From the NCBI GenBank assembly GCA_963843375.1, contig CAWJKT010000014.1, forward strand, positions 64,001 to 128,000: a stretch of 64,000 bases of DNA, given 5' to 3'. The number at the start of each line of letters is the position of its first letter. Position 1 is the first letter of the stretch. Under the pieces are notes generated by a model. The model was not told where the DNA came from and searched no databases. It worked only from the letters and a program-made list of their open reading frames with translations. Shown here one piece after another: positions 40,849 through 64,000 of this stretch. The DNA comes from an uncultured Pseudomonadota bacterium (GTDB lineage Bacteria; Oederibacteriota; Muellerivitia; Muellerivitales; Muellerivitaceae). Position numbers and translations under genes: made by a program.

Positions 40849-42627
40849 ATGCGCCTGAAAAAAATGATTCTTCTATTGCTTTTGATCTTTTGTGGGTTTG
40901 TTTTCCCGGCTTCGGCAAAAGTCCCGAGTCTTTCCGGTAAGGAAGTCTTTGTTCCGGGTGAAATCATCGTCCGATTTAAAGAGGGCGTTTCCCCTGATGA
41001 TCGGGGCAAGGCTCTCTCTGCCATGGGAGCTGCCCGCGCCTTAAACCATCCTAATTTTTATAAGATCAAGTTAAAACCGGGCATGGATGTGCGAAACGCA
41101 GTCGATCAAATGGGGAAGGATCCATCGGTTCAATATGCCCAACCCAATTACCGATATTATGCCTTAGGGTCGGTTTGTACATTGCCCGGGGATGTTTATG
41201 ACGAGGGTTATACGACGGTGGCGAGTTGGCCCTTCCTCAAGATCCAGATGGATAAGGCCGTCACGGTTTTTGACGGTTGGACTACTTGCCCGCCAAACGG
41301 GAGCGCTTCTGTGACGGTGGCGGTTCTTGATTCAGGAATTTCGCGCAATCATCCCGATCTGAAACAGGTGCCTTTGATTGGTTATAACGCCATATGTGAT
41401 GTTCAGGAAGAGGATGCTTCGTGCGTTTGCAACGCTCAAGTTACCGATGGAGCCGGTGTAACGGCCAGTATGGATGATTTTGGACACGGGACTTATGTTT
41501 CGGGAATTGTTGGAGCGGTATGGAACGCTACCACGCCCAATACTGAAACGGGTTCCTGTAATTTCAGTATTACTTCAGGTGTTGCAGGCGTGGCGCCTGG
41601 TAGCATCTTGCTGGCCGTAAAGGTTTTGGACTGCACCGGGTCTGGTACCACCGACAGCATTGTCTCCGGCACCGATTATGCCGTTGCCCACGGGGCGAAG
41701 GTTTTGAATTTTTCCCTTGGATCCAGTCCGTCCGGAGGGCTTGATCCTGCCGAACAAGAGGCCTTGGACAACGCTTTGGCCAACGGGTGCGTAATTGTGG
41801 CGGCCGCGGGCAATGAATCCAACCTCCCCCAGACCCTCGCTCCGCTCGATTATCCTGCGGCCTATCCGCCCGTGGTTTCTGTCGGGGCGACCGACCCTAG
41901 TGACCAGGTTGCCTTTTATTCCAATGGCGGGCCTAATTTGGAACTAGTGGCACCTGGAGGCTTTGGCACCGGAGTTTACCAGCCCGCTCTTGACGTATTC
42001 AGTTCGTTTCTTTGTCCGCTTTCCTCTGCGGCGATATCAGAGGGTGGATTTTCGGCTTTGACCAGTGATTCGAATTTTGGCACGGCTGCCGGGACGTCCG
42101 CCGCAACTCCATTTGTCTCCGCAACTGCGGCATTGATCTTTTCCCTCTACCCCAACCTCACTAATACCCAAGTCGTTCAAGCCATCATCAATAACACCGA
42201 CAGTTTGGATGGAAATACCGGGTGGAATTCTAAAACCGGTTATGGGCGGCTTAATGTTTATCAAGCGCTTCTGAACGCCGGGAACGGCGGGGGACAAATT
42301 ACGGATTATATCCAGACCTTCAACAGCCCCAATCCTTTTTATACCGAACTTACAGGGACGACCAATATCACCCTGGCCATTTCTCAGCCCGCGCCTGTGG
42401 AATTGACCATTTATGATTCCTCGGGGGAATTGGTTTTTCATCATAATTACAATGCTTCCGAACTTAATAACAATCCATCCAATCCGCAATTCAAGTCTTA
42501 TTACATACCCTGGGATGGACGTAACGGCTCGGGGCAACAGGTTGTTACCGGAATTTATTTTTACAGTGTGAAGGTGAACGGCCAAGCCGGGAGAAACAAG
42601 ATCGCCCTTATCCAGGGAACGAAATGA
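40849..42627 (+). CDS. Secreted S8 subtilase with C-terminal T9SS/FlgD-Ig-like domain
   Basis: Signal peptide, prodomain, catalytic VLDSG, GHGT, GTSAATP, oxyanion AAAGN; tail SPNPF...IYDSSGELV...WDGRNGSG...TGIYFY. Confidence 0.92.
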   Translation: MRLKKMILLLLLIFCGFVFPASAKVPSLSGKEVFVPGEIIVRFKEGVSPDDRGKALSAMGAARALNHPNFYKIKLKPGMDVRNAVDQMGKDPSVQYAQPNYRYYALGSVCTLPGDVYDEGYTTVASWPFLKIQMDKAVTVFDGWTTCPPNGSASVTVAVLDSGISRNHPDLKQVPLIGYNAICDVQEEDASCVCNAQVTDGAGVTASMDDFGHGTYVSGIVGAVWNATTPNTETGSCNFSITSGVAGVAPGSILLAVKVLDCTGSGTTDSIVSGTDYAVAHGAKVLNFSLGSSPSGGLDPAEQEALDNALANGCVIVAAAGNESNLPQTLAPLDYPAAYPPVVSVGATDPSDQVAFYSNGGPNLELVAPGGFGTGVYQPALDVFSSFLCPLSSAAISEGGFSALTSDSNFGTAAGTSAATPFVSATAALIFSLYPNLTNTQVVQAIINNTDSLDGNTGWNSKTGYGRLNVYQALLNAGNGGGQITDYIQTFNSPNPFYTELTGTTNITLAISQPAPVELTIYDSSGELVFHHNYNASELNNNPSNPQFKSYYIPWDGRNGSGQQVVTGIYFYSVKVNGQAGRNKIALIQGTK

Positions 42628-43649
42628 AATTCCTCCCACTTGGAGGCCGTGGCGGTGAATGGAGAGGCTTTAATAGCCCTTCTGCCCGGAAACTCTTTAA
42701 TCTCCGGATTTTTCTCTGTCTCAGCTTGTCTTTGGGGTTATTAGGAAAGCGGTCTTTTGCCGATCAACAGGGAGGCCAGCGACCGGCGGCTTATTTGGAA
42801 TACGGGGCGGGTGGAGTGGAAAATGCCATGGGCGGGGCGGATACCGCGGGGCGTGGCGACGCGGCGAATGGATTTTGGAACCCGGCGGGACTGAGCGGTT
42901 TAAGAGGTTTTCAATTAGAAAACCAATACACCCTAATGTCCCTGGGACAAGAATTAAATTTTGCCGCTTTCGCTAACGGTTACCGCGATATGTTTTTTTA
43001 CGGTCTTTCATGGTTTCTTTATAGCGCGGGAGGGGACATTGAGGCGAGGACGGGGCCATCCCTGGAGCCGGATAGTATTTTTGGCGACATGGAGATGACT
43101 TTCCTGGCTTCCATAGCCTTTAAGCTGGACCCCCAATGGTCCATCGGGTGGAACATAAAAATATTGACCCAAACCTTCAACAGTTATTCGGGATTTGGAT
43201 TGGGGGAGGATATGGGGATTCAATTGCGCCTCACCCAATTTGAAACCATCGGCTTGATGATCCAGGACCCGTTCACATTTATGAACTTTGACAATTCGAT
43301 CACCGATTATGTCCCTCCCACTTTTAAGGCGGGTTTTGCCGAACGAGATGTGGCTCTTAACGCGAAACTTCATTTTGACCTGGACTGGAGCCCGGATTTG
43401 GGATTGGAACCCCATTTGGGGGTGGAGTGGCGGCCGAATGATGTGCTGGCTTTGAGAGTTGGAGGTTGGATGGAAAACTTGACAGCTGGGACTTCGGGAG
43501 GAGCTGTCTTGATCGATCCGACTGCGGGGTTTGGAATTTATGTTCCAATGGGAGAAAGTCAGCTTGAATTGGATTATGTCATTTTGAATGATCGTGTTGA
43601 TCAAGGGAATTTTCTGCACCAGATTTCCATCACCGGTAAATTTCTTTGA
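42624..43649 (+). CDS. PorV/PorQ-like outer-membrane beta-barrel
   Basis: YLEYGAGG...AMGGA...FWNPAGL N-terminal motif; amphipathic strands; ends HQISITGKFL. Confidence 0.72.
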   Translation: MKFLPLGGRGGEWRGFNSPSARKLFNLRIFLCLSLSLGLLGKRSFADQQGGQRPAAYLEYGAGGVENAMGGADTAGRGDAANGFWNPAGLSGLRGFQLENQYTLMSLGQELNFAAFANGYRDMFFYGLSWFLYSAGGDIEARTGPSLEPDSIFGDMEMTFLASIAFKLDPQWSIGWNIKILTQTFNSYSGFGLGEDMGIQLRLTQFETIGLMIQDPFTFMNFDNSITDYVPPTFKAGFAERDVALNAKLHFDLDWSPDLGLEPHLGVEWRPNDVLALRVGGWMENLTAGTSGGAVLIDPTAGFGIYVPMGESQLELDYVILNDRVDQGNFLHQISITGKFL

Positions 43650-44640: not shown

Positions 44641-47600
44641 ATGAAAAAGGCCTCTTTTCTTGGAGTTAAAGTACTTTCCCAACGATTAGGACGACTAGTT
44701 CCACTGTTCGTTTTTCCAATTCTGCTTACTTCCTCATGTTTTTTAACCATAGTGAAACAAGCCAATGCCGCTATTACCTTTGATGCGGCGGATTCCACCA
44801 GGGCCAATACGCAGAGTGTGACGTTTGACCACACGGTTAGTGGCCAAGAAACCTTGTTAATTCTCCAAGCGGATATCAGATATGGTTTCGGCGGGGCAGT
44901 TTCTGTCATCTCGGCGAATTATGGGGGGGTACCACTAACCCTTGTGCTTTCCGATCAGGATACGACATTTAATGACTTGGAGACTTGGTACCTGTTGTCT
45001 CCCGCAAGTGGTCCGAGCAGCGTCGTTGTAAACTTAACTGGAACCCCGACCGCCGGGAATTATGGAATCCTCAGTTACGATGGTGTTGATCAAACAACTC
45101 CGTTGGGAGTTACGTTTTTCGCCGCCAATGCCGCCAATACTTCGCAAACATTTAATGTCACCAGCACAACGGCCAATAGTGTTTTGCTTTCGAATTTTCT
45201 TTGGAATTCAAATTCCGTCAATATAAACGAATTTGGCGCGGGGCAAACCCAGAGATGGTCTGAAAGCAGTTCCCGTAGCTCAGAGGGAGACGATTTTTTT
45301 ACAACCACGGTCGGGTCGAATTCAATGAGTTATACTCTTTCCGGTTCCGTAGCTGCCGATGGTGAAATAGTTGAAATCATACCGGCTCCAACACAGACCC
45401 CGACGAATACCGCAACCAACACCACGACGGATACGGTTACGTCAACCCCGACGGTGACTCTCTCGCCCACAAGTACCCCGACGGATACGGCAAGCTATAC
45501 AACAACGGAAACGACGACGAATACGGCGACTTTGACCCCGACGGCGACACCTCAGCCGCGGCTGATTCTATCGTGGAATAACGAACCGGCGTCCCAGGCC
45601 TATTTATATAACCAGGCGAATGTGACAGGAATTCAGGTGGTACTGAAGGCGTTTGGACAGGAGCCGGTATCGGTAAGCCAACTGGCTTTTGGATTGGGTG
45701 GAACCCTGGGGTATACGGAAGTGTTAACAGGAACTGTGGCATTGTACCCGGATGCAGGGACGAATGAGACGTTGGGGGTTTATAACGGGGCACCCAGCCC
45801 GACACCGATTGCGACTGGAAGCTTTTCGGTCAACGGGTCAGTTACCTTTGGCGGATTGGCAAATTTAGCAGTGAATCCAGCAACGGGGCCCCAAACTCTG
45901 CTTTTGGTTTTTAGCCTCCAAGCCAATGGTGGAGAGACCTTTAACAATACGATTAGCCCTTCATCGATTGTGGCTGCGGGTGTAACGACGGGGACGCCTG
46001 CTTTGGTTTTGGGATCATTGATCAACGGAAATACGTTTACGGTCACGGGTCCCACGGCAACGCCAACCGCAACGCCAACGAATACGGCGACCAACACGGC
46101 AACCTTGACTGCGACGGTAACAGCGACGAACAGCCCGACTTTCACCACAACCCCGACCCCAACCAACACGCCGGTCAATCCCCCGGTAACGGTAGCTCTG
46201 TCGGTACCAACAGTAAGCCTGACAGTGATCCCGGGGACTGCCGGGGTGACGGTGATACAGTTGCAAGTGACCAACAATAGCGCAACTGAGGGAGTATCAC
46301 TGTTATCAATTGTTTTAGATGGTACCAGTTTTAACGACTCAGCCGGAATAGCTCAGGTAAATCTTTATGATTCAACGGGCTTGGTAACGAGCGGGACATT
46401 TAAGGCTTCGGGAGCGCCCTTGACTTTGGTTTTGGCCCCACTCGAAACCTTGGGGGCCTCGGGGTCGGCCACTGCGACACAATCCTTTGTGGTTACCTAT
46501 GATTTCTCTAACGACCAGGTAGCGACCAACTACAGTTTGGGGTTAGGCATCGGTAGTTTGACTGGTACCGGGGTTTTGAGTGGAAAGCCGATTACTGTTA
46601 CGGGATTGCCGCTGGGTGGAAACACAATCACTGTGGTTTTGCCGACCTCAACCCTCACCAATACAGCCACGAACAGCGCGACGAGTACGGCAACCCCTAC
46701 GGCGACCTTCACGACAACGGACACTCCCACGGATACGGCAAGCTATACAGCGACGGAAACAGCGACGAACACGACGACCTTAACGCCCACAGTGACGCCC
46801 CAATCCCGGTTGGTACTATCGTGGAATAACGAACCGGCGTCCCAGGCCTATTTTTACAATCAGGCCAATGTGACGGGAATCCAGGTGGTATTGAAGGCGC
46901 TTGGACAGGAGCCGGTTTCAGTGACCCAAATTTCCTTTGGATTGGGCGGAACGCTTTTGAGCGGGGAGGTAGTGACAGGAAGCGTGGCATTGTTCCCAGA
47001 TACAGGTACGGGCGGAGATGATGGAGGAGGAAACGGGCTCTATACAGGTGGTGGGAGCGCATTGGCAACCGGGAGTTTTACGGGTGGAGCGGTAACTTTT
47101 GGGGGAATGACGAATTTGGTGGTGAATCCGACGGGAGCGCCCCAAACTCTGCTGTTGGTGTTTACCCTTCAAGCCAACGGCGGGGAGACTTTTAACAATA
47201 CGATTAGCGGCAATTCGATTACGGCGGTGAGTGCGGATTCGGGGCTCCCGGTTTCGGTTTTTGGGACATTAATCAACGGGAATACTTTTACGGTAACGGG
47301 TCCAACGGCGACGCCTTCATTCACTCCGACCAATACGGCGACGAATACGGCGACGAATAGCGCAACGAATACCGCGACGAATACGGCGACATCAACCCCT
47401 ACAGAAACATTCACGACGACGAACACCCCGACGGATACGGCGACCAATACGGTGACGAATACGGCTACCGCTACGACCACAAATACGCCCACAGATAGCG
47501 CGACGAATACCGCAACCAATACGGCGACCTTCACGACAACGAACACCCCGACAGATACGGCGACCAATACGGCGACGAATACGACTTCCGCTACGACTAC

Positions 47601-50600
47601 TGATACAGCCACGAACAGCGCGACGAGTACGGCAACCCCTACGGCGACCTTCACGACAACGGACACTCCCACGGATACGGCAAGCTATACAGCGACGGAA
47701 ACAGCGACGAACACGACGACCTTAACGCCCACAGTGACGCCCCAATCCCGGTTGGTACTATCGTGGAATAACGAACCGGCGTCCCAGGCCTATTTTTACA
47801 ATCAGGCCAATGTGACGGGAATCCAGGTGGTATTGAAGGCGCTTGGACAGGAGCCGGTTTCAGTGACCCAAATTTCCTTTGGATTGGGCGGAACGCTTTT
47901 GAGCGGGGAGGTAGTGACAGGAAGCGTGGCATTGTTCCCAGATACAGGTACGGGCGGAGATGATGGAGGAGGAAACGGGCTCTATACAGGTGGTGGGAGC
48001 GCATTGGCAACCGGGAGTTTTACGGGTGGAGCGGTAACTTTTGGGGGAATGACGAATTTGGTGGTGAATCCGACGGGAGCGCCCCAAACTCTGCTGTTGG
48101 TGTTTACCCTTCAAGCCAACGGCGGGGAGACTTTTAACAATACGATTAGCGGCAATTCGATTACGGCGGTGAGTGCGGATTCGGGGCTCCCGGTTTCGGT
48201 TTTTGGGACATTAATCAACGGGAATACTTTTACGGTAACGGGTCCAACGGCGACGCCTTCATTCACTCCGACCAATACGGCGACGAATACGGCGACGAAT
48301 ACGGCTACCTCTACAACCACAAATACAGCTACGTCAACCCCGACTCAAACAGCTACATTCACCACCACCAGCACCCCCACGAACACCGCGAGCAGTACTC
48401 CCTCTGCCACCCCGACGGCTACCTTTTCAACACCTGATGTAAGTGTTGCCCTGTTTGGCGGTTTGGGGCCATCCACTCAAATTCCGGGAGCATCCAACAT
48501 TCCGGACTTAGAAGTGGTGGTTAGTAACAATAGTGCCGAAGGAATTAGTTTGGTCGATATAGTGTTTTCGTCAAATGGCCCGGGAAATGCGGGGATAACA
48601 CTTGTAAGTTTATATAGAGGTAGTGGCGATGCTCCGGCAAGTCTTGTGCAAAGCGGTCCTTATAGCGCCAGCAATACGGTTACATTGGGTTTGCCGCTCC
48701 TGGACAATATTCCATCCGGCCAGGCACAAACCTATACCGTCGCATTTGATTTCTCGAATACAGCCCCGCCAGGGGCCTATGCGGCGATATTGACAAGTTT
48801 GCAAGGGGTCGGACAGACATCGGGTTTTCCGCTCCAAGTTACGGGAGAGCCCGTGACAGGAGTGACGATTACTATTGCCGATTCAACTTTTACTCCAACA
48901 TCTACGGCTACCAACACAACCTCTAACACTCCGACCAACACTGCCACGAATACCGCAACCAATACGGCGACTAACACGGCTACAAATACCCCCACGTACA
49001 CAACCACCAATACTGCGACTAATACAGGTACATCTACCGCTACGAATACGACGACATCGACGACTACCCCTACTCCCACTAACACAACCACTAACACACC
49101 CACGAATACAGCGACGAATACGGCTACACCTACACCTGTTGATCCCCCTGTAGAAGTGGTGCAGTTGCTGACTCCAGTGACTATTGGAGTAATCCCCGGC
49201 ACAGCCGGGGTAACAGTGATGCAGTTTGCGGTGACGAATACCAGCACAACGGAAGGGGTATCTCTATTGTCTCTGACGCTCACGGGGACAACCACGGGAA
49301 CAGCAAGCGATATTAACGGGATAACGCAAGTAAAGCTTTACGACCCTTCAGGTCAGATAACAGGAGATACCTATGAATCGAGCTTTTTGACCCTGGGGTT
49401 GGCACCGGAGATAATGCTGGGAATAGCGGGATCGCCTTCTGCGGCGCAGACTTTCTACGTGACCTATGACTTTTCAGTGTCCCAATTAAGTGGGAACTAC
49501 GCGGTGACGGTCTTGGCCGGAGGATTGACGGGGACAGGAACTTCGACCGGAAAACCAATAATGGTTACAGGATTGCCGGTAGGAGGGAATCTGGTCACGG
49601 AGTCCCTGCCGACGGCTACGCCAACAAACACAGCAACGAATACGGACACGAGCACCGCCACCAATACCCCGACCAATACCGCGACCAATACGACTACCTA
49701 TACCTCCACGAGCACTCCTACTCTAACTCCTACGGAAACCACCACCAACACGCCCACTAACACAGCCACTAGTACATCCACGAACACGACCACGGCCACG
49801 ACTACCAATACCGCGACCAATACGGTTACGAATACCACAACCAATACAGCTTCAAATACCGCAACCTACACAACCACCCTCACCGCAACGATGACTCCCA
49901 CTTCAACGGCGACACCTTATCCCCCATACACTTTGGCTTTCCAGACGCCTTTCCCATCATTTATAGCCGGCGCATCGACTGGTCCCCTGACGATCCAGGT
50001 TCAAAATTCACTGGGTGGTCCAGCGACTTTCCCGACGGCGATAACTTTGGATCTTTCGGCTACGACCACCGGCGATTACAATTTCTCGCTCACTCAGGGA
50101 GGGGGGGCGGTTACCTCCTGTACTCTCCCCTCTGGAACCTCAAGCCAAGTTGTCTATTACACGGGCTTTAAGGCGGAGGTTCAGTCCTTGAATGTGACCG
50201 CCCTTGCCGCCATCCCAACTCCCTCAGTTTCCCAGGCTGCGACTGTTTTCCCGGCTGCTTACAGCAAGTTGCAAGTGCTGTTTCCAAATCAAAGTTCGGA
50301 CCCTGGAAAACCTAACACCAATAATACGGGACGAATCGGCCTTCCCAATTCGGTCGCGTCTGGCAACCCCGTGACCGCCACCGTAAACGCTGTCGATACT
50401 TTCTTCAATCCCGTCACGGTCAATATCAGCGGTCATCCGGTGACATTTAAGACTACGGATGGAACTCCGCAGAACTCCGCGGTCTTTACATCCGACACGG
50501 TCAATGCCCCTATCATATTTATCAACCCTGGTCCCCAAACTTTGACTGCTGGTGATTCGGAGACCACTTTTACCGGAAATAGCGATCAAATTACGATCTT

Positions 50601-51402
50601 GCAAGGGACGAACAGCGACGAATTAAACGTCGTCCACGGCATGCCGAACCTGTCCACGGTCATCTTGGGCCAAACGGGCGTGGAGGTACTCACTTTCAAT
50701 TTGAATGTCGAGAACGGAACCCATAACATCAAAATCAACAACTTGACCATAAATGCCCTGGATCAGGCGGGACCCTCGGGGTCGGGGGTGACCCTTGATA
50801 CCGCTTTCGAATCCTTGATCCTGGAAGGGCCATCCACGGTTCTCTCCCAACCGATCACCTTGGACGTTTCAGGATCCGGTTCGACCTCCGCCGTATTCCC
50901 GGGTCCCATCACCCTAGTGAACGGTTCCTCTCTGCCCTTGACTCTGCTTGCTGATATCCTGCCCAACGCCACGGTCAATACAGTCCTTTTATCTCTAGGA
51001 CAAAATGGGATTTCCGCCAATGACTCAACCAGCGGTGTGACGGTTGTATCCACCTGCTTCGGTGATTCCACCTGTTTCCCAATGGATTCAAATCTGATGC
51101 TGTTTAGGACTGGTGACATCGCGAGCACCTATGGCAACTATCCCAACCCTTTCCACCCCGAAATGGGCGATACAACGATTGAGTTTAATCTGTCGACTCC
51201 CCTGTCCTATACCTTGGGAATTTATGACATCCTTGGGAGGAAAGTGAAAATTTTCCAGAGCAACGGTCCACAATCCGGACTTCAACAATTGTCATGGGAT
51301 GGAAAAAACGACGCCGGTGTTTATGTCTTGAGTGGGATTTACTATGCCCAATTGAACGTGAGCGGCAATAAATATCTTCTGAAAATAGCGGTGGTGAAAT
51401 AA
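44641..51402 (+). CDS. Giant Thr-rich secreted/surface protein with repeated beta-sandwich domains and a T9SS/FlgD-Ig-like C-terminal domain
   Basis: Signal peptide ending ANA-A; TNTAT/TPT linkers; repeated domains; tail NYPNPF...IYDILGRKV...WDGKNDAG...SGIYY...KIAVVK. Confidence 0.88.
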   Translation: MKKASFLGVKVLSQRLGRLVPLFVFPILLTSSCFLTIVKQANAAITFDAADSTRANTQSVTFDHTVSGQETLLILQADIRYGFGGAVSVISANYGGVPLTLVLSDQDTTFNDLETWYLLSPASGPSSVVVNLTGTPTAGNYGILSYDGVDQTTPLGVTFFAANAANTSQTFNVTSTTANSVLLSNFLWNSNSVNINEFGAGQTQRWSESSSRSSEGDDFFTTTVGSNSMSYTLSGSVAADGEIVEIIPAPTQTPTNTATNTTTDTVTSTPTVTLSPTSTPTDTASYTTTETTTNTATLTPTATPQPRLILSWNNEPASQAYLYNQANVTGIQVVLKAFGQEPVSVSQLAFGLGGTLGYTEVLTGTVALYPDAGTNETLGVYNGAPSPTPIATGSFSVNGSVTFGGLANLAVNPATGPQTLLLVFSLQANGGETFNNTISPSSIVAAGVTTGTPALVLGSLINGNTFTVTGPTATPTATPTNTATNTATLTATVTATNSPTFTTTPTPTNTPVNPPVTVALSVPTVSLTVIPGTAGVTVIQLQVTNNSATEGVSLLSIVLDGTSFNDSAGIAQVNLYDSTGLVTSGTFKASGAPLTLVLAPLETLGASGSATATQSFVVTYDFSNDQVATNYSLGLGIGSLTGTGVLSGKPITVTGLPLGGNTITVVLPTSTLTNTATNSATSTATPTATFTTTDTPTDTASYTATETATNTTTLTPTVTPQSRLVLSWNNEPASQAYFYNQANVTGIQVVLKALGQEPVSVTQISFGLGGTLLSGEVVTGSVALFPDTGTGGDDGGGNGLYTGGGSALATGSFTGGAVTFGGMTNLVVNPTGAPQTLLLVFTLQANGGETFNNTISGNSITAVSADSGLPVSVFGTLINGNTFTVTGPTATPSFTPTNTATNTATNSATNTATNTATSTPTETFTTTNTPTDTATNTVTNTATATTTNTPTDSATNTATNTATFTTTNTPTDTATNTATNTTSATTTDTATNSATSTATPTATFTTTDTPTDTASYTATETATNTTTLTPTVTPQSRLVLSWNNEPASQAYFYNQANVTGIQVVLKALGQEPVSVTQISFGLGGTLLSGEVVTGSVALFPDTGTGGDDGGGNGLYTGGGSALATGSFTGGAVTFGGMTNLVVNPTGAPQTLLLVFTLQANGGETFNNTISGNSITAVSADSGLPVSVFGTLINGNTFTVTGPTATPSFTPTNTATNTATNTATSTTTNTATSTPTQTATFTTTSTPTNTASSTPSATPTATFSTPDVSVALFGGLGPSTQIPGASNIPDLEVVVSNNSAEGISLVDIVFSSNGPGNAGITLVSLYRGSGDAPASLVQSGPYSASNTVTLGLPLLDNIPSGQAQTYTVAFDFSNTAPPGAYAAILTSLQGVGQTSGFPLQVTGEPVTGVTITIADSTFTPTSTATNTTSNTPTNTATNTATNTATNTATNTPTYTTTNTATNTGTSTATNTTTSTTTPTPTNTTTNTPTNTATNTATPTPVDPPVEVVQLLTPVTIGVIPGTAGVTVMQFAVTNTSTTEGVSLLSLTLTGTTTGTASDINGITQVKLYDPSGQITGDTYESSFLTLGLAPEIMLGIAGSPSAAQTFYVTYDFSVSQLSGNYAVTVLAGGLTGTGTSTGKPIMVTGLPVGGNLVTESLPTATPTNTATNTDTSTATNTPTNTATNTTTYTSTSTPTLTPTETTTNTPTNTATSTSTNTTTATTTNTATNTVTNTTTNTASNTATYTTTLTATMTPTSTATPYPPYTLAFQTPFPSFIAGASTGPLTIQVQNSLGGPATFPTAITLDLSATTTGDYNFSLTQGGGAVTSCTLPSGTSSQVVYYTGFKAEVQSLNVTALAAIPTPSVSQAATVFPAAYSKLQVLFPNQSSDPGKPNTNNTGRIGLPNSVASGNPVTATVNAVDTFFNPVTVNISGHPVTFKTTDGTPQNSAVFTSDTVNAPIIFINPGPQTLTAGDSETTFTGNSDQITILQGTNSDELNVVHGMPNLSTVILGQTGVEVLTFNLNVENGTHNIKINNLTINALDQAGPSGSGVTLDTAFESLILEGPSTVLSQPITLDVSGSGSTSAVFPGPITLVNGSSLPLTLLADILPNATVNTVLLSLGQNGISANDSTSGVTVVSTCFGDSTCFPMDSNLMLFRTGDIASTYGNYPNPFHPEMGDTTIEFNLSTPLSYTLGIYDILGRKVKIFQSNGPQSGLQQLSWDGKNDAGVYVLSGIYYAQLNVSGNKYLLKIAVVK
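46661..47359 (+). repeat. 699-bp direct repeat, copy 1 (intragenic)
   Basis: Matches 47603-48301 at offset 942; the overlapping minus-strand ORFs translate identically in both copies. Confidence 0.92.
47603..48301 (+). repeat. 699-bp direct repeat, copy 2 (intragenic)
   Basis: Matches 46661-47359; a diverged third copy lies at about 45477-46095. Confidence 0.92.
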
Positions 51403-53089
51403 TGATCAAGGAACGCCGCGCGACTTTAGCTGGAATTCCGCTAAAGGCCCACTGTGGACATATCGCAGCTCTTTTCCTAGGTATGTTCACGTTTGCTGCC
51501 CTTTCCGCAACCATGGCACAGACTTTGAGTACGGGCGGGGTGGAATCTCCTTTTGAACTGGGAGGATCCGCTTGGGCCCAGGGAATGGGTGGGGCTGTCG
51601 CTGCGGTCTCGGGTTATGGGGATAGTTTTTTCGAGAATCCCGCGTCCCTCGCGACGGTCCAGGATCACGAAATCCTGACGTTCCACGCGCCCTTGTTCCT
51701 CGACACCCTTTATGATTCGGTTGGTTATGTCCAGCCAGTCGGCCGTAATACCAGTTTCGGTTTAGCTTTGAATCGATTGGGGGTTTCAAACATTTTGGAA
51801 ACCACCACCAACATCCAGGCCCTCTCCAACTTTTCTTTTGCGGAGTATGAGGGGCTTTTGGGTTATGGATTCCGCCCGTTACCGAATTTGGATTTTGGAG
51901 GCAACGTAAAATTCGTCTTTGAACAATTGGGAAGTTACCAGGGAAGCGGCGGAGGCTTGGATCTGGGCCTTTTGTATCACTTTTCCACTACCCGGGCGGA
52001 TTTTAATCTGGTCGGGGTGCGGAATATCACTCTGGGGTTCTCAGTTTCCAACGTTCTTCAACCGCAAACCAAGCTATTCCAACTGGCGGATAATCCGGCC
52101 CGTGTTTATCGTCCGGCCTTCGCTTACTATTATGAATTTCCTGGATCCCAAAGCGATTTGTGGGCAACGGTTGAGGGTGAAATTCCGGACAGCGGTGAAA
52201 AGCTCGTCCGCGGGGGGGTGCAATACGGATGGAAGAAAATGATTTTCGTCCGTGCGGGTTTTGATGGGGTGGGCCCAACTGCGGGTGCGGGATTACGTTA
52301 TTATGATTTTGAGTTTGATTACGCTTATGATCAGCAGGATTTGGGAGCCTTGAACCAGTTTTCTCTGACTTACCGTTTTGGACATTATGTGGACCCGCTG
52401 GAAGCTCAAAAAATTGACCTGTTAAAATGGGTGGCCCAAAGTTACACCAAAGACAATGATTTTGACCCGGCCATCAAAGCCTGGCAAAACGTACAGCGTG
52501 AATTTCCAGACGACACGGAAGCTTCCCGGGCCATCCGGGAAATCCAACAACAACGAAAAGACCTGGTTCAGGATCAACTCAAGATGGCGCGATCTGCCAT
52601 GAACCGGGGCGATTTTGAGAAGGCGGTTCCGCTGATTGCCAAGGTGTTAAGTTTGGACCCGGGAATTCCGAGGCCAAAGCGCTCTTAAGCCAAGTCGATA
52701 AAAAAACGTTGATTTCGACCAATTATACCCGCGGGGTTGAGGCTTATAGCCGTGAAGATTATGGCTTGGCGATTCAATACTTGGAAATGGTCTACGAAGT
52801 GGATACCCATTACCGGGATGTCAATTTCCTTTATCACGACGCCCAAAGCCATTATCTTCCCCTGGAGTCCATGCCAAAGGATTTAACCGAGCTTTATGCC
52901 CAGGGAGTGAATTACTATATAAGCGGTGATTACCAGAAAGCCATTGAGTCTTGGGAGAAAGTGTTGGACAAGAGCCCCAAAAATTTTCTTGTTCGTCGTA
53001 ACATCGAGGAAGCGCGAAGCCGCTTAAAGGACAAGGCGATTCCGGGATCTTCCCCCGCCGGAGATCAGGAGCCTATTAACAAACCATGA
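51402..53089 (+). CDS. PorV-like beta-barrel fused to C-terminal TPRs; frameshift near 52662
   Basis: FELGGSA...GMGGA...FENPASL; barrel ends FSLTYRFG; adding one G to GGG 52661-52663 gives LSLDPGNSEAKALL and joins the 52709-53089 TPR ORF. Confidence 0.78.
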
Positions 53090-55479
53090 ACTTAAACCCT
53101 TTTATTTATCGAATTCTTTCGCGCCTTCCTTTCGAACCCAAACGGCGACTTTTTCGCCTGGAAGTGGAAGCTAAAGACATTGAGCTCCTGACGGTCAAAG
53201 ATTTTGTCCAAAGGGTTTGTGATTCGGCGGGTTGTACCCCTAAGGAAACCTCCAATATCAAGCTTGCAATTGATGAGGCCTGCAGCAATATCATCCGTCA
53301 CGCCTACAAGGATAAAGCTGACGGGAAAATCGTCTTGGAGATGGGAATCGGTTTTGCCGACTTGATGATCAAAGTCATTGATTACGGCAAGCCGTTCGAT
53401 TTCCGGGGGGTCAAAGATCCGGACCTGAATCATTACGTTGACATCGGAAAAAAAGGCGGGCTTGGAATATGGCTCATCAAGAAAGTCATGACCGATGTTC
53501 GTTATACGGCTTTTCCGGATCACAATGAGCTGATACTTTATCGCCTTCTTTCAAAAGCCCCGCCCAAGGAATTGGGCCTCAAAAAGGGAAGTTACTCGAT
53601 TTCGACGAAGTTCTCCTTGGGATCGATTGTTTTGATATTTTTCATCATCGCCTCGGCTTTCTTTTATCTCAATAAACAACAGCAAGCGCGGGTTTTTCAA
53701 CAACAAAGGGAAAACGTGGTGGCGACTCTTCAGACCATGTCTTCTGAAGCTGGCATTTTTATGGCACGCAAAAGCGACCTTGAGTTGGACCGTTTGATTC
53801 GGGAGGTGCTCCGGGGGGACAAAGACAGGGTTTTAAGTTATGCCTTTTTCGTCAGTCCTGAGGGCAGGTATCTGGCGCATTCCGATTTAAACCAACTTTT
53901 TAAGGTTTATTCGCCGCCACCTGATGTTCAAATGACCCGGAATCCGGGCATTCAAATCTTCCGAATAAAGAAAACCGAGGGTGTCCTGACGGATTATGCC
54001 ACAGCCGTTTATTATCACGGACAATGGATGGGTGAGGTCCACTTGGGTGAAAGCGACGCCGCCATCCAGCAAATAGCCTCCAGGGTGAAAATCGATTTGG
54101 CGAAACTGATGGGATTAATCGTTCTTGTCAGCGTTATCGGCCTTTATTTCCTTTCTCGCATTTTCATTAAGCCTTTCCATAAAATTTTGGAAGGGGTCCA
54201 TGCCATGAGCATGGGCAATTTAAACGCAAAAATCGACGTGGAAAGCCAGGACGAATTCGGCCAATTGGCCAATATATTCAACGACATGACTACTAAAATC
54301 CAGGATTCCCAGAAGGGAATGGTGGAAAACGAGAGAATGCAAAAGGAAATGCAGGTGGCCCAGGAAATCCAGCATACCCTTTTGCCTGGTGAGTTTCCTC
54401 AAATCGAAGGCTACGAGATTGGGGCCACCTATCGGGCTGCCAAGGAAGTCGGGGGGGACTATTATGACTTTTTTTGGGTCGACCCGACCACGCTTGGAAT
54501 CGTAGTAGCGGACGTTTCGGGCAAGGGCGTGCCCGGCTCGCTGGTCATGACCATGATCCGGACGGCCATGCGTCTGGAATCGCGGGGAAACCGGTCATCG
54601 TCAAGTGTTTTGGCCAAAGTTAACCAGCATGTCACTGCGGACATGAAGCGGGGGATGTTCGTGACGATGTTTTATATCATTTTGGATTCCCGAAACCGCT
54701 CGATCAATTTTTCCAGCGCCGGGCACAATCCCATGATCCTATACCGGGGAAAAACGAAGGAAGTTTACTTTCTGAAGCCCAAGGGTTTTCCGGTGGGGAT
54801 TGATCTTCCGGAAGAGGATATGTTTGTGAAAAACATGGCGCTTCAAAAGGTCAGCCTCGAGAAAAACGACATGCTTGTGATTTATACCGACGGAATTACG
54901 GAAGCCATGAATCCCGAAAGCGAGCAGTTCGGCGAGGACAGGCTCATTAAGGTCATAAAGGAAAATTCTCATCTCACTCCGGCGGAGTTCGTGGATAAAC
55001 TTAATGAGGCCATCGCCCAATTCACCCGTGGAGCGGAGCAGAACGATGACATTACGATTGTGGCCATTAAAGAAAAAATGAAGGCCGAGAACGTGGAGTT
55101 CAAGTTCCGGAAAAAACTCTTGGATTTGGTCGAAAAGAAAGGTTTGTCCGTGGCGGAGGCCTGCCGACAAATGAACACATCCACTAATACCTATTACCGG
55201 TTCAAGAAAATATTTGTGGAGAAGGGAAAAGATGGATTGAAGCCGGTAAAAAATAAAAAGCGAGGGGAAATTGGGGAACTTCCTCTTCCCCAGCAGCAAG
55301 CGGTGATGGCGATGGTTCGGGAGCACCCGGAATACGGGGCAAAGCTGATCATGGAAGCGATCGAGAAAAGTTCTAATCCTCCCATGAAGGTCGATCAAAA
55401 GTTGGTTTCGGAGTTCTTGAAGCGAAAAGGGCTAATGGATGTGAAGGCTCGCGAAGCGCTTCGGCACCAACGAGGTTGA
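53086..55479 (+). CDS. Membrane protein fusing RsbW-type HATPase kinase, TM-sensor-TM-HAMP, SpoIIE/PP2C phosphatase and C-terminal HTH
   Basis: LAIDEACSNIIRHAY, DYGKPFD, GGLGIWLI; two TMs; HAMP DEFGQLA..FN.M; EVGGDYYD, VADVSGKG, SAGH, YTDGITE, DDIT; SVAEACR...TYYRFKK HTH. Confidence 0.9.
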   Translation: MNLNPFIYRILSRLPFEPKRRLFRLEVEAKDIELLTVKDFVQRVCDSAGCTPKETSNIKLAIDEACSNIIRHAYKDKADGKIVLEMGIGFADLMIKVIDYGKPFDFRGVKDPDLNHYVDIGKKGGLGIWLIKKVMTDVRYTAFPDHNELILYRLLSKAPPKELGLKKGSYSISTKFSLGSIVLIFFIIASAFFYLNKQQQARVFQQQRENVVATLQTMSSEAGIFMARKSDLELDRLIREVLRGDKDRVLSYAFFVSPEGRYLAHSDLNQLFKVYSPPPDVQMTRNPGIQIFRIKKTEGVLTDYATAVYYHGQWMGEVHLGESDAAIQQIASRVKIDLAKLMGLIVLVSVIGLYFLSRIFIKPFHKILEGVHAMSMGNLNAKIDVESQDEFGQLANIFNDMTTKIQDSQKGMVENERMQKEMQVAQEIQHTLLPGEFPQIEGYEIGATYRAAKEVGGDYYDFFWVDPTTLGIVVADVSGKGVPGSLVMTMIRTAMRLESRGNRSSSSVLAKVNQHVTADMKRGMFVTMFYIILDSRNRSINFSSAGHNPMILYRGKTKEVYFLKPKGFPVGIDLPEEDMFVKNMALQKVSLEKNDMLVIYTDGITEAMNPESEQFGEDRLIKVIKENSHLTPAEFVDKLNEAIAQFTRGAEQNDDITIVAIKEKMKAENVEFKFRKKLLDLVEKKGLSVAEACRQMNTSTNTYYRFKKIFVEKGKDGLKPVKNKKRGEIGELPLPQQQAVMAMVREHPEYGAKLIMEAIEKSSNPPMKVDQKLVSEFLKRKGLMDVKAREALRHQRG

Positions 55480-55504
55480 CAGGGTTTAAGGCTAAAGTGA
55501 TAAT
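55476..55504 (+). promoter_or_regulatory. Internal sigma70 promoter for the STAS gene
   Basis: TTGACA (55476-55481), 17 bp, GATAAT (55499-55504). Confidence 0.6.
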
Positions 55505-55537
55505 AAGCCCGCGGAGGGCCCAATATTCGGAGGAAGT

Positions 55538-55900
55538 ATGGAAAATATTTCGGTAAGTGTATCAGAACATCCCCAAAATAAAGAAATCACCCTCCTGGCC
55601 GTTAAAGGTTTTATCGATACGACCACGGCTCCGGAGTTTGAGAAGAAGTTTCTTACGGTATTGGGCGAAAAGAAATTCAAGTTCGTTGTTGATTTAAAGG
55701 ATGTCAATTACATCAGCAGCGCGGGTTGGGGCATTTTTATCAGTGAGATTAAACGAATTCGGAACCAAAAAGGGGATTTGGTGCTGGTCGGCATGAATCC
55801 CGAGGTCTCGGAGGTTTTCGAGCTTTTGGAATTTAACACCATTTTAAAGTCTTTTCCAAATGTCGAAACCGCCATTAAGAAAGGTTTTGAAAAACCGTAA
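55538..55900 (+). CDS. STAS-domain anti-anti-sigma factor (RsbV/SpoIIAA family)
   Basis: GFIDTTTAPEF, VDLKDVNYISSAG phosphoacceptor motif; GGAGG RBS. Confidence 0.92.
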   Translation: MENISVSVSEHPQNKEITLLAVKGFIDTTTAPEFEKKFLTVLGEKKFKFVVDLKDVNYISSAGWGIFISEIKRIRNQKGDLVLVGMNPEVSEVFELLEFNTILKSFPNVETAIKKGFEKP

Positions 55901-55939
55901 TCCAAAGGATTTGAAGATCCGAAAGTCGGAAAAAAAGAT

Positions 55940-57079
55940 ATGGAATCGGCTGCATTAACCTCCCTCATTGAAATTGAGGGAAAAAACTTCACCATTGAAA
56001 CCTCTCCTATAACGGGTAAGAATCGTCTATCCTCCCTGATTCAATTGGGTGGACGGACTCTTTCTCAGCGTGATTTTGAATTACCTGAGGGGCTGGATGA
56101 AGATGGATTCAAGCATTATCTGCAGGAAACCCATCGCGTTCGTTCGGTCGAATTGGAATCCCTATTTCGTTTGAGCCGAAAAATCGAGGAAAAACCTACG
56201 GCCGATGCTTGTTGGAAAATCGGGGTGATTTTCCTTTCAAACGGTTTTTACGAGGATTCACGCCAGAAATTTCAAAAAGCCCTCGAGATGGAACCCAGGC
56301 ATTTACAAGCCATTAAAAGCTACGGAATCACACTGACCCTTCTGGAAGATTTTGACGGCGCCTTGGCTTCCCTGAATCAAGCGAGGGAATTGGGGCCTTC
56401 GTTTGCGGATATTTATTACCATCTGGGCAATGTTCACTTGTACAAACGCGAACTGGATGAATCGGTTCAATGCTATCTGCAAGCCCTTCAAATCAACCCC
56501 CGTTATGCGGACGCTCGTTTAAGATTGGCCACGGCTTGTGTGGGTTATTTGGCCCAATCTTCCAATCAATTAACGGAGCCTAAAGTAATAGAGTTGTCCG
56601 AAAGGACCAGGACAGAAGCGGAAACGGCGGCCACACTCAACCCAAAAGTTCGAAACCGGGCCTATATGATGGCTATGGATTTTTTGAGAAGTAAAAAATA
56701 TTCACAAGCTTTTCAATCTTTTATTGAAGTTCGTCCGCGTTATGTACCCCGAATAGGCGATGAGATTATTTTTTTCTTTACCTTAACCCTGTTATACGGA
56801 AGCGAAGGTATAGATCAACAGATGACGGATCAATATGTCGATAAATTGTGCAGGGTGATCGAAGAATTTCCTCATTACGCTGATCTGCATCACCATTTGG
56901 GTACCGCTTATTTGATTAAATGCCGCTTTGACGTGAACCGGTCACTGAAGGAGTTCAAAAAAGCCCTGGAAATTAATCCACAATTTCAAAAAGCTATGAC
57001 TAATTCGGCCGACACGGAGGATTTGCATAAGAAAGTATTGACCGTTTTGAAAAAAGCTATTATGCCGCAGGGAAATTAA
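55940..57079 (+). CDS. Cytoplasmic TPR protein with an unknown N-terminal domain
   Basis: PSFADIYYHLG, ALQINPRYADA, PHYADLHHHLG, ALEINPQF TPR motifs; no signal peptide. Confidence 0.82.
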   Translation: MESAALTSLIEIEGKNFTIETSPITGKNRLSSLIQLGGRTLSQRDFELPEGLDEDGFKHYLQETHRVRSVELESLFRLSRKIEEKPTADACWKIGVIFLSNGFYEDSRQKFQKALEMEPRHLQAIKSYGITLTLLEDFDGALASLNQARELGPSFADIYYHLGNVHLYKRELDESVQCYLQALQINPRYADARLRLATACVGYLAQSSNQLTEPKVIELSERTRTEAETAATLNPKVRNRAYMMAMDFLRSKKYSQAFQSFIEVRPRYVPRIGDEIIFFFTLTLLYGSEGIDQQMTDQYVDKLCRVIEEFPHYADLHHHLGTAYLIKCRFDVNRSLKEFKKALEINPQFQKAMTNSADTEDLHKKVLTVLKKAIMPQGN

Positions 57080-57232: not shown

Positions 57233-57616
57233 TTAGGTTTCGGATGGAGGAGTCAGCGAGTAGTTAGTTTCCAAAAACTTAATATGTTCGGAAGTGACCT
57301 TTTCGAAATTCACGCCATAAGCGTATCTGCCCATGGTTTTCATGGGGTTCTTACGGGCCCAAACGACCTTACCCATATAAACGACGCTATGACTTCCGTC
57401 CAATGAGTCCAATTCAAGGATAATGTCGTTATTATTGTCGAGGGTCTTATTGGAATAGATTTGGGCCCCTGTGGAACTGACGTTGACAAGTTGGGCGCGA
57501 AAGACAGCCCCGTCCCTGGAGGGATCTGCAAGACGTCCTTTGATTGTTTTCACCATGACGACTCGGCGGTTGGTCCTCAAATTGCCTTTGGATTGAGGAC
57601 GAACTGTTTTTTTCAT
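57233..57616 (-). CDS. PilZ-domain protein (candidate c-di-GMP receptor)
   Basis: RTNRR (RxxxR), NVSSTG (D/NxSxxG), GKVVW, YGVNF. Confidence 0.85.
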   Translation of the reverse strand: MKKTVRPQSKGNLRTNRRVVMVKTIKGRLADPSRDGAVFRAQLVNVSSTGAQIYSNKTLDNNNDIILELDSLDGSHSVVYMGKVVWARKNPMKTMGRYAYGVNFEKVTSEHIKFLETNYSLTPPSET

Positions 57617-63672: not shown

Positions 63673-64000
63673 TTAGCGAATCAGCATTATTCTCTTAAGT
63701 TTAACGCCAAACGGCTCGACGAGGTAAAAAATATATATTCCACTGGCACATCTTTCATTGTACTTGTTGGTCCCGTCCCATAAGTACGATTTAACAATGG
63801 GATTACCGAGATTTTGAGAATCCAGGGTTTTAATATGTTCTCCCGCCGAATTGTAGACCATTAAAGAATAGTTACCGGGATAAAGCGCATAAGCTACAAA
63901 AATGGAAACGGGGCCATTAGCAGGGTTGAAAGCGTTTTCCGAAACATAAAAGGTATCGGCCGGAGTGGGGGTTGGGGTGCAAGTATTACCGGGATATCCG
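63673..64000 (-). CDS. 3' end of another protein with the same C-terminal domain (truncated by the window edge)
   Basis: Open frame ...TPTPTPADTFYVSENAFNP...VYNSAGEHIKTLD...WDGTNKY...ASGIYIFYLVEPF...LIR. Confidence 0.8.
   Translation of the reverse strand, partial: GYPGNTCTPTPTPADTFYVSENAFNPANGPVSIFVAYALYPGNYSLMVYNSAGEHIKTLDSQNLGNPIVKSYLWDGTNKYNERCASGIYIFYLVEPFGVKLKRIMLIR

Follow-up and report, generated by a model that had tools for sequence, protein, structure and literature searches.

Can the state of a protein on the outer surface of a diderm bacterium be relayed to the cytoplasm by the products of a single gene cluster? This question is raised by five co-directional genes in the window analyzed here, i.e. 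the whole 64,000-nucleotide stretch of contig CAWJKT010000014.1 from an uncultured bacterium (assembly GCA_963843375.1, 4.05 Mb with a completeness rating of 80%, labelled G000 in the counts below). The genes encode a giant secreted cargo with a type IX secretion system (T9SS) C-terminal domain (CTD), an outer-membrane barrel with a tail of tetratricopeptide repeats (TPRs), an inner-membrane sensor, a STAS-only protein and a cytoplasmic TPR protein. An earlier note, made from the sequence alone, had proposed that they form one trans-envelope signalling system lacking a sigma factor. All five genes were recovered at the positions given in Table 1, the junctions joining the first three (TAATG at 51400-51404 and ATGA at 53086-53089) are present, profile matches bore out the domain calls (CTD, PorV/PorQ barrel and TPR, HATPase_c_2, sCache, HAMP, SpoIIE, helix-turn-helix (HTH), STAS and TPR), and no sigma factor was found among the open reading frames (ORFs) or domain matches of the cluster. 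The reading favored here, with a probability of about 0.57, is a modular trans-envelope relay on a reduced type IX-like secretion system, in which the signal would travel inward from the cargo-barrel unit.

The evidence that carries this reading comes from gene neighborhoods. Among 99 genomes of the phylum, 65 orthologous sensor loci were found; three of them are without Cache and HAMP domains and four run off a contig end, which leaves 58 that could be assessed. The barrel-TPR gene was directly upstream of the Cache-bearing fused sensor in 58/58 loci (with only the TPR end on the contig in G058), 39 of them being seen first by coordinates and the rest by gene calls. In families f1, f2, f7 and f10, a CTD cargo preceded the barrel in 24/24 loci read and STAS and TPR genes followed the sensor in 24/25. 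Families f1 and f7/f10 have different flanks, and regional inertia is therefore not the only explanation of the adjacency. In metagenomes, 80 loci were kept, of which nine have the fused sensor and 71 are other SpoIIE proteins that were excluded from the counts. One of the nine duplicates a genome locus and one has no upstream DNA; in the remainder, the barrel-TPR or its TPR end was upstream in 7/7, and a giant CTD gene preceded the barrel in 5/5 with room for it. The synteny check suggested in the earlier note was thus positive both within the phylum and in distant metagenome loci. Full-length database relatives at 42-43% identity carry the names Firestonebacteria, Krumholzibacteria and Zixibacteria; in some, two or three STAS domains are fused on. 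Since the adjacency persists across genomes and metagenomes despite changed flanks and missing cargo or STAS genes, the core of the system is the barrel-TPR and the Cache sensor. The cluster is not one fixed five-gene system, as 17 loci have no neighboring cargo or STAS gene, the cytoplasmic TPR gene goes with the kinase/phosphatase and not with the barrel, and the STAS and TPR genes have a predicted promoter of their own.

In one clade, the barrel and the Cache domain have also been lost together. In G013, G071 and G015 (99, 66 and 82% complete), the sensor lies at the same site but has neither Cache nor HAMP, and the cargo, barrel and STAS genes have disappeared from the locus; whole-genome searches of the three returned no ortholog of the cargo, the barrel or the cognate STAS. 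The three Cache-less sensors form one clade (support 100/99), and the loss was therefore counted as one event. The cytoplasmic TPR gene tracks the kinase/phosphatase and not the barrel, being kept even without barrel, Cache and STAS.

The same input is reused with other outputs. Of 80 listed matches to kinase-less Cache-HAMP-PP2C paralogs, 40 modules were read, 11 of which had been preselected for barrel adjacency and were counted apart (cargo gene in 9/11). Among the 29 unselected paralogs, eight follow a cargo and barrel-TPR pair, 12 follow a secreted-looking all-TPR protein sharing the same last repeat, and two have a TPR gene one step further upstream; a probable lipoprotein with the same last TPR repeat also precedes a Cache sensor. 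A second module in the host genome, 3 kb beyond the window end (G000:C14:130873-136108; L208:3374-8606), consists of a CTD cargo, a barrel-TPR, a histidine kinase with transmembrane (TM), periplasmic and HAMP segments, and an OmpR-type regulator. In 18/18 loci of this type with downstream DNA (20 loci found, nearly all from f1) the histidine kinase follows the barrel, and the same Cache profile also matches the periplasmic part of this kinase (88%, E 2.9e-6). In the paralog module L188, malectin and CBM9 domains are found in the cargo, and a LacI-like gene comes last (LacI as read from the sequence). The barrel-TPR/Cache unit is real, widely conserved and modular.

A direct contact between the two proteins was assessed by modelling the last TPR repeats with the Cache domain of the same-genus ortholog, using paired alignments of 67 rows supplied by the analyst. 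The complex scored 0.62 (0.69, 0.42 and 0.62 in individual runs) against 0.33 for the best control, a mark reached by 116/157 solved complexes and 2/215 mismatched pairs, counts that hold only roughly because the alignments were user-supplied. The runs share at least 72% of contacts, with a partner pLDDT of at least 84. In the model, D231-L232 at the tip of the Cache domain sit in a groove formed by Y499, V503, Y506 and N534 of the TPR tail; Y499 is kept in 66/67 rows and L232 in 57/67. Inter-chain covariation at the modelled contacts was positive (mean z 0.61, p 0.0013) and is given little weight because it derives from 37 effective sequences of related kin in the same alignment that was fed to the model. 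No solved PorV-TPR or TPR-Cache homolog was found by sequence. The proposal of the earlier note that the barrel TPRs touch the periplasmic domain of the sensor thus gains from the 58/58 adjacency, the co-loss in one clade, the reuse with other outputs and the model score, and does not gain from interface conservation, for which the result was null. On this modelling and genomic evidence, a physical TPR-Cache link is considered quite likely.

The barrel itself was assigned through P0126, its intact same-genus ortholog, which scored 91.3 bits against NF033709 (cut-off 90) and so belongs to the PorV/PorQ family by that profile; of four distant orthologs or paralogs, three scored 106-113 bits and one 85.7. 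The PorV equivalog NF033710 was not reached (21.9 bits for a cut-off of 250). The structural model shows 14 strands followed by C-terminal helices (pLDDT 86.7), and its top fold matches, 8gl6_F (E 5e-12) and 6h3i_F (E 1e-11), are both from T9SS translocon structures. The TPR tail comprises about 230 aa in the window's barrel, within a range of 160-230 aa. In barrels of this general topology, C-terminal helices face the periplasm.

The cargo has a signal-peptide-like N-terminus (by eye), repeated beta-rich domains with Thr-rich linkers between them, and a type A-like CTD. Its last 94 residues match TIGR04183 at 37.5 bits, above the cut-off of 23 for a T9SS type A sorting domain, and FlgD_ig also matches in the CTD region. 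An internal duplication with a spacing of 942 bp contains 300-nt blocks that are 100% identical. As a whole, the protein has no family match in Pfam or NCBIfam, and cargo passengers vary freely between loci. The host genome encodes 79 ORFs with a terminal CTD and 20 PorV-like ORFs, of which 9/20 are directly behind a CTD gene. A divergent SprA-like protein was found in 5/5 genomes as collinear pieces of TIGR04189 (best E 1e-21 to 1e-34, below cut-off), which suggests a reduced T9SS in the host's lineage. PF14349 (SprA/Sov) and TIGR03517 (GldM/PorM) matched in 0/5 genomes, their controls being equally silent. The PorU sortase was above cut-off in 0/5 genomes, with matches confined to the CTD part except for one 190-position piece in G036. 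Type B cargo stays on PorP-like proteins (PMC9143113). By analogy, since no full-length PorU was found, the cargo would plausibly remain on its barrel in the same way.

On the cytoplasmic side, the sensor comprises, in order, an RsbW-type kinase (aa 32-151), a TM segment, a single Cache domain (196-337), a second TM segment, HAMP (355-407), a SpoIIE/PP2C phosphatase (467-662) and a double HTH (674-790). The kinase matches PF13581 (E 4e-23), with the N, D and G motifs kept in 50, 50 and 51 of 51 fused sensors, the miss being a truncated ORF. The phosphatase matches PF07228 (E 2e-49) with four metal-binding aspartate motifs kept in 51/51, and its best NCBIfam and fold match is SiaA. In the HTH region, 29/32 segments match positions 2-114 of the IS481 transposase profile NF033577 (best E 6e-19); the match stops at position 114/284, so the catalytic integrase core of IS481 is not in the sensor. 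The HTH may bind DNA. Relatives of the Cache domain in the PDB include DcuS and CitA. In genome-wide searches, the sensor was the sole SpoIIE match in G000, G001, G003 and G012 and the only strong HATPase_c_2 match in G000, where STAS matches number 14. Residue S61 of the cluster's STAS protein aligns with the conserved loop serine of an anti-sigma-B antagonist (6m36_B), the role of which is described in PMC8256260. No sigma factor that could be the kinase target was found in the cluster or seen beside the sensors in the loci read, and the N-terminal domain (~90 aa) of the cytoplasmic TPR protein had no usable ESM Atlas match.

Assembled into a mechanism, these elements would act as follows. 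Once exported, the cargo would remain attached to its own PorV-family barrel, whose outer loops would hold the CTD, as PorV biology, the gene pairing and the lack of a full-length PorU suggest. The TPR tail, from the barrel topology, would hang in the periplasm, where the last repeat is predicted to bind the tip of the Cache domain. If the cargo-barrel unit changed, whether through loading, surface or ligand binding, or pull, this contact would be altered, and the TM-HAMP segment would shift the balance between phosphatase and kinase. That balance, going by the catalytic motifs, would set the phosphorylation of S61 in the STAS protein and perhaps of other STAS proteins, given that the sensor is the only SpoIIE phosphatase in G000. 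The output would most likely be partner switching of STAS with the cytoplasmic TPR protein or the HTH, through which adhesion or surface-protein expression could be changed without a dedicated sigma factor. We infer both that the state of the surface protein is the signal and that information flows inward.

Several observations weigh against this relay. The loci come from kin and are not independent. In a second branch (17/17 loci), the cargo's place is taken by a gene that, from its motif, is presumably RNase R-like, the barrel-TPR is shorter and no STAS follows the sensor. The Cache-less clade retains the cytoplasmic TPR gene and both catalytic sites without a cognate STAS, so that the cognate STAS may not be the sole output. 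The terminal TPR closes 14 of the 19 barrel matches for which no sensor was listed; two of these 14 lead to a Cache sensor, two are cut off and ten have no adjoining sensor. Conversely, 7/29 unselected paralogs lack an upstream TPR gene, although the docking leucine (equivalent to L232) persists in their Cache domains. The predicted interface residues are no more conserved than the rest (p 0.18), the model scored just 0.42 in one of its three runs, and a pair of this kind may score well through the likeness of TPR domains to solved TPR-peptide complexes. The periplasm is roughly 15-25 nm wide, a distance that a tail of 160-230 aa and the Cache domain would have to bridge, and PorV barrels are not known to offer a route by which a signal could cross them.

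Other explanations of the same core were weighed against these points. The contact could be a checkpoint of secretion or assembly that signals the state of the barrel, be it assembled, empty or docked at the translocon; or else an unsecreted CTD could be bound in the periplasm by the Cache domain, as PorA is by PorY. Activation of a sensor kinase by a T9SS cargo CTD in the periplasm (PMC12152298), docking of PorV in the lateral opening of SprA (PMC10994853), the 17 loci that retain barrel and sensor with no adjoining cargo gene, and the free variation of cargo passengers would all agree with a checkpoint. It is nevertheless considered unlikely, as all-TPR proteins and a probable lipoprotein encoded before Cache sensors carry the same last TPR repeat, and as the malectin/CBM9 cargo with a LacI-like gene after its module suits the sensing of outside sugars. 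Alternatively, the sensor and its neighbors could be co-regulated only, with the Cache domain sensing a small molecule, the cargo-barrel unit being a regulated target in the same operon, and the TPR tail binding something else. Cargo-barrel pairs are indeed common in G000, housekeeping flanks are conserved too within f1, ten TPR-barrels have no sensor neighbor, and DcuS and CitA are among the Cache relatives. However, the adjacency is kept where the flanks have changed completely and where the cargo gene is gone, the loss of the barrel was accompanied by that of the Cache domain itself, the pairing recurs across three output types, and the complex model passed against controls, which together make simple co-regulation improbable.

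The modelled TPR-Cache contact carries no direction, and the sensor could also be imagined to hold or release the barrel-cargo unit according to the cytoplasmic state. An analogue exists in LapD, which acts on LapG and LapA; the cargo resembles a length-variable adhesin, and the Cache profile matches 4u64_A, which we take to be a LapD-type output domain, weakly (E 0.18). Such inside-out control or tethering is regarded as very improbable, since a single input is combined with different classical outputs on the cytoplasmic side (PP2C behind HAMP, or HisKA with an OmpR-type regulator), and no ligand-binding input domain was seen.

Among known systems, PorV-type barrels are shuttles or anchors, and Cache domains are mainly small-molecule sensors. 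In FecA-FecR-FecI, NlpE-CpxA and RcsF-IgaA, the periplasmic part of an outer-membrane protein contacts an inner-membrane regulator; the inward relay proposed here resembles such cell-surface signalling in its working only, the barrel family, connector and outputs all being different, and no TonB-dependent receptor, anti-sigma or extracytoplasmic-function sigma factor was found among the domain matches of the cluster. In chlamydiae, RsbU, RsbV and RsbW reportedly balance a STAS-like protein between a PP2C phosphatase and a separate kinase. In SiaABC of Pseudomonas aeruginosa, a PP2C phosphatase and a kinase likewise balance a STAS-like protein (PMC7647112), but the kinase is a separate protein and no outer-membrane partner is named in the available parts of that paper. 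The cytoplasmic half described here is a variant of both SiaABC and SypE-SypA of Vibrio fischeri (PMC3610818); where SypE has a central REC domain, the present sensor has TM-Cache-TM-HAMP, together with a transposase-like HTH.

With respect to secretion, PorV pairs with type A CTDs and PorP/SprF with type B CTDs (PMC12618676, PMC9143113, PMC10994853), and for a cargo whose private barrel is encoded by a linked gene, type B CTDs provide a precedent (PMC12618676). The genes described here share with T9SS shuttle barrels the linkage of a CTD cargo gene to a 14-strand barrel gene, the assignment to PorV/PorQ by hidden Markov model and fold, and perhaps the translocon, given a divergent SprA-like protein of ~2000-2200 aa with profile matches below cut-off; they differ in that type A-like CTDs have private PorV-like barrels with a TPR tail and in that no full-length PorU and no GldM match were found, the controls for the latter being silent. 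The literature searched held no signalling role for a T9SS shuttle barrel. The nearest link between T9SS and signalling that was found is PorA-PorY-PorX-SigP of Porphyromonas gingivalis, where a T9SS-linked protein is likewise the ligand of an inner-membrane sensor (PMC12152298, in which NlpE-CpxA and RcsF-IgaA are also mentioned). There, the cargo CTD binds PorY in the periplasm and PorV is dispensable, according to the same source, whereas here the predicted ligand is the TPR tail of the barrel and the sensor is a Cache-HAMP phosphatase/kinase. No description of a PorV-TPR barrel coupled to a Cache sensor was found in the literature searched, which largely excludes subscription journals. The proposed input relay would be built from known parts.

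A broader generalization, put forward tentatively and at slightly less than even odds, is that these modules represent a new class of surface signalling in many uncultured diderm phyla. In this class, a reduced T9SS would present interchangeable sensor cargos (adhesins or carbohydrate-binding proteins) on private PorV barrels, the TPR tail would be the protein ligand of a Cache receptor, behind the receptor would stand a partner switch, a two-component system or a DNA-binding domain derived from a transposase and bound to the membrane, and the secretion shuttle would become the transducer. If the barrel tail is the ligand of the Cache receptor, signals would have a new way across the envelope, T9SS parts would have taken on a new role outside Bacteroidota, and surface or polysaccharide sensing by uncultured soil and sediment bacteria could be explained. 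Because the key claim concerns two small soluble domains with named interface residues, E. coli can serve for testing it and the organism need not be cultured. As a part for synthetic biology, a portable connector from outer to inner membrane with swappable outputs would also be useful.

Expression of the cluster was considered from its promoter sites. The predicted sigma-70 site before the STAS gene (Table 1) agrees with the consensus at 11/12 positions, and sites of at least 9/12 occur at that place in 16/23 fused-sensor loci, against 0.85 expected from shuffles, compared with 3/40 kinase-less loci against 3.2 expected. The STAS and TPR genes thus probably have their own promoter; given its conservation, a single simple transcript of all five genes is improbable and should not be assumed. 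In the region 5' of the giant gene, no conserved operator was found; the relatives have just a TATAAT-like hexamer there.

In this assembly, gene 2 falls into two pieces, an ORF of 428 aa (51402-52688) and a shifted frame that runs to 53089, with the break near 52660. Contigs from 3/4 public runs (X1, X3 and X6, from three studies) contain one extra base behind 52657, X2 stopping short of the site, and the barrel gene is unbroken in relatives; the split is therefore most likely a one-base assembly error. A true pseudogene was also considered and was rejected in view of the extra base in the contigs of the other runs. At 55462, the X2 contig (one run only) is one base shorter, whereupon the sensor ends at ~800 aa, as in relatives, so that a second assembly indel altering the sensor's last residues is probable.

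Table 1. Positions in the window of the genes and elements of the cluster.
Feature	Position	Strand	Basis
Giant secreted cargo, 2253 aa	44641..51402	+	ORF and domain profiles
Type A-like CTD of cargo	51118-51399	+	TIGR04183
PorV/PorQ-family barrel with TPR tail	51402..53089	+	Two ORFs as assembled; intact ortholog P0126
Terminal TPR repeat of barrel, predicted Cache-binding groove (Y499, V503, Y506, N534, P0126 numbering)	52870..53030	+	Complex model
Inner-membrane kinase-Cache-HAMP-PP2C-HTH sensor	53086..55479	+	Domain profiles, catalytic motifs
Periplasmic Cache domain; D231-L232 dock in TPR groove in model	53671..54096	+	
Predicted sigma-70-type promoter before STAS-TPR; -35 hexamer overlaps sensor 3' end	55476..55504	+	11/12 match
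STAS-only protein, 120 aa	55538..55900	+	Profile; S61 alignment
Cytoplasmic TPR protein, 379 aa	55940..57079	+	Profile; N-terminal ~90 aa without family assignment

Several further features were noted around the cluster and its relatives. A PilZ gene (57233-57616, minus strand) is convergent on the cluster and conserved in family f1 only; it was left out of the cluster parts, together with gltX, because PilZ is missing at L047, L048 and L049. Two further STAS genes of G000 also adjoin PilZ-like genes. Upstream, at 40849-43649, a gene for a CTD-bearing S8 protease overlaps a PorV-like barrel gene without a TPR tail, a pair conserved in f1 and f2, and two more secreted CTD proteins with Thr-Pro linkers are encoded at 61201-63621 and 63673-64000 (minus strand). 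The SprA-like translocon gene of the host lies at G000:C15:110900-114600 (L196), where it is split in the assembly; its product is ~2000-2200 aa in four other genomes. At L220 and L223, a giant CTD cargo and a tail-less barrel are followed by ExbD/TolR-like genes, with a TonB_C gene at L220.

STAS proteins of distant loci (L048:14420-15352, L049, L059, L060, L063, L203, L204 and L207) carry a C-terminal HTH homologous to the second HTH of the sensor that the window's STAS lacks, and at L057:5316-6092 an inserted gene for a ParA-like ATPase separates the TPR gene from that of a sensor with three fused STAS domains. G018 (99% complete, 110 contigs) has no sensor, no barrel and no SpoIIE match, yet 13 STAS matches. 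Elsewhere in the host genome are a paralog of the cytoplasmic TPR protein (G000:C6:104442-105590), a Cache protein with a cyclase-like end (G000:C6:242101-243798) and an all-TPR protein with the terminal repeat and no sensor neighbor (G000:C3:121555-123501).

Among the related modules, L168-L174, L176, L177, L179, L185 and L186 have a ~650-aa secreted-looking all-TPR protein with the same terminal repeat before Cache-PP2C, STAS and kinase genes, with a purA-like gene ahead. A conserved pair of ~790-aa cargo and ~576-aa barrel-TPR was found without an adjoining sensor at L212, L217, L218, L219, L222, L226 and L227; the sensor partner of these pairs may be encoded elsewhere. A LacI-like gene ends the paralog modules L188, L156, L158, L163, L165 and L195, and a ~409-aa gene with an MCP signalling domain (scanned for L159) ends L159, L161, L162, L180, L181 and L183; going by their domains, these genes are candidate outputs for polysaccharide sensing. 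Finally, at L191, L194, L210 and L211, a TPR-ended barrel is followed by a beta-propeller-OmpA protein reminiscent of PorE, with Cache-PP2C next in L191 and L194.

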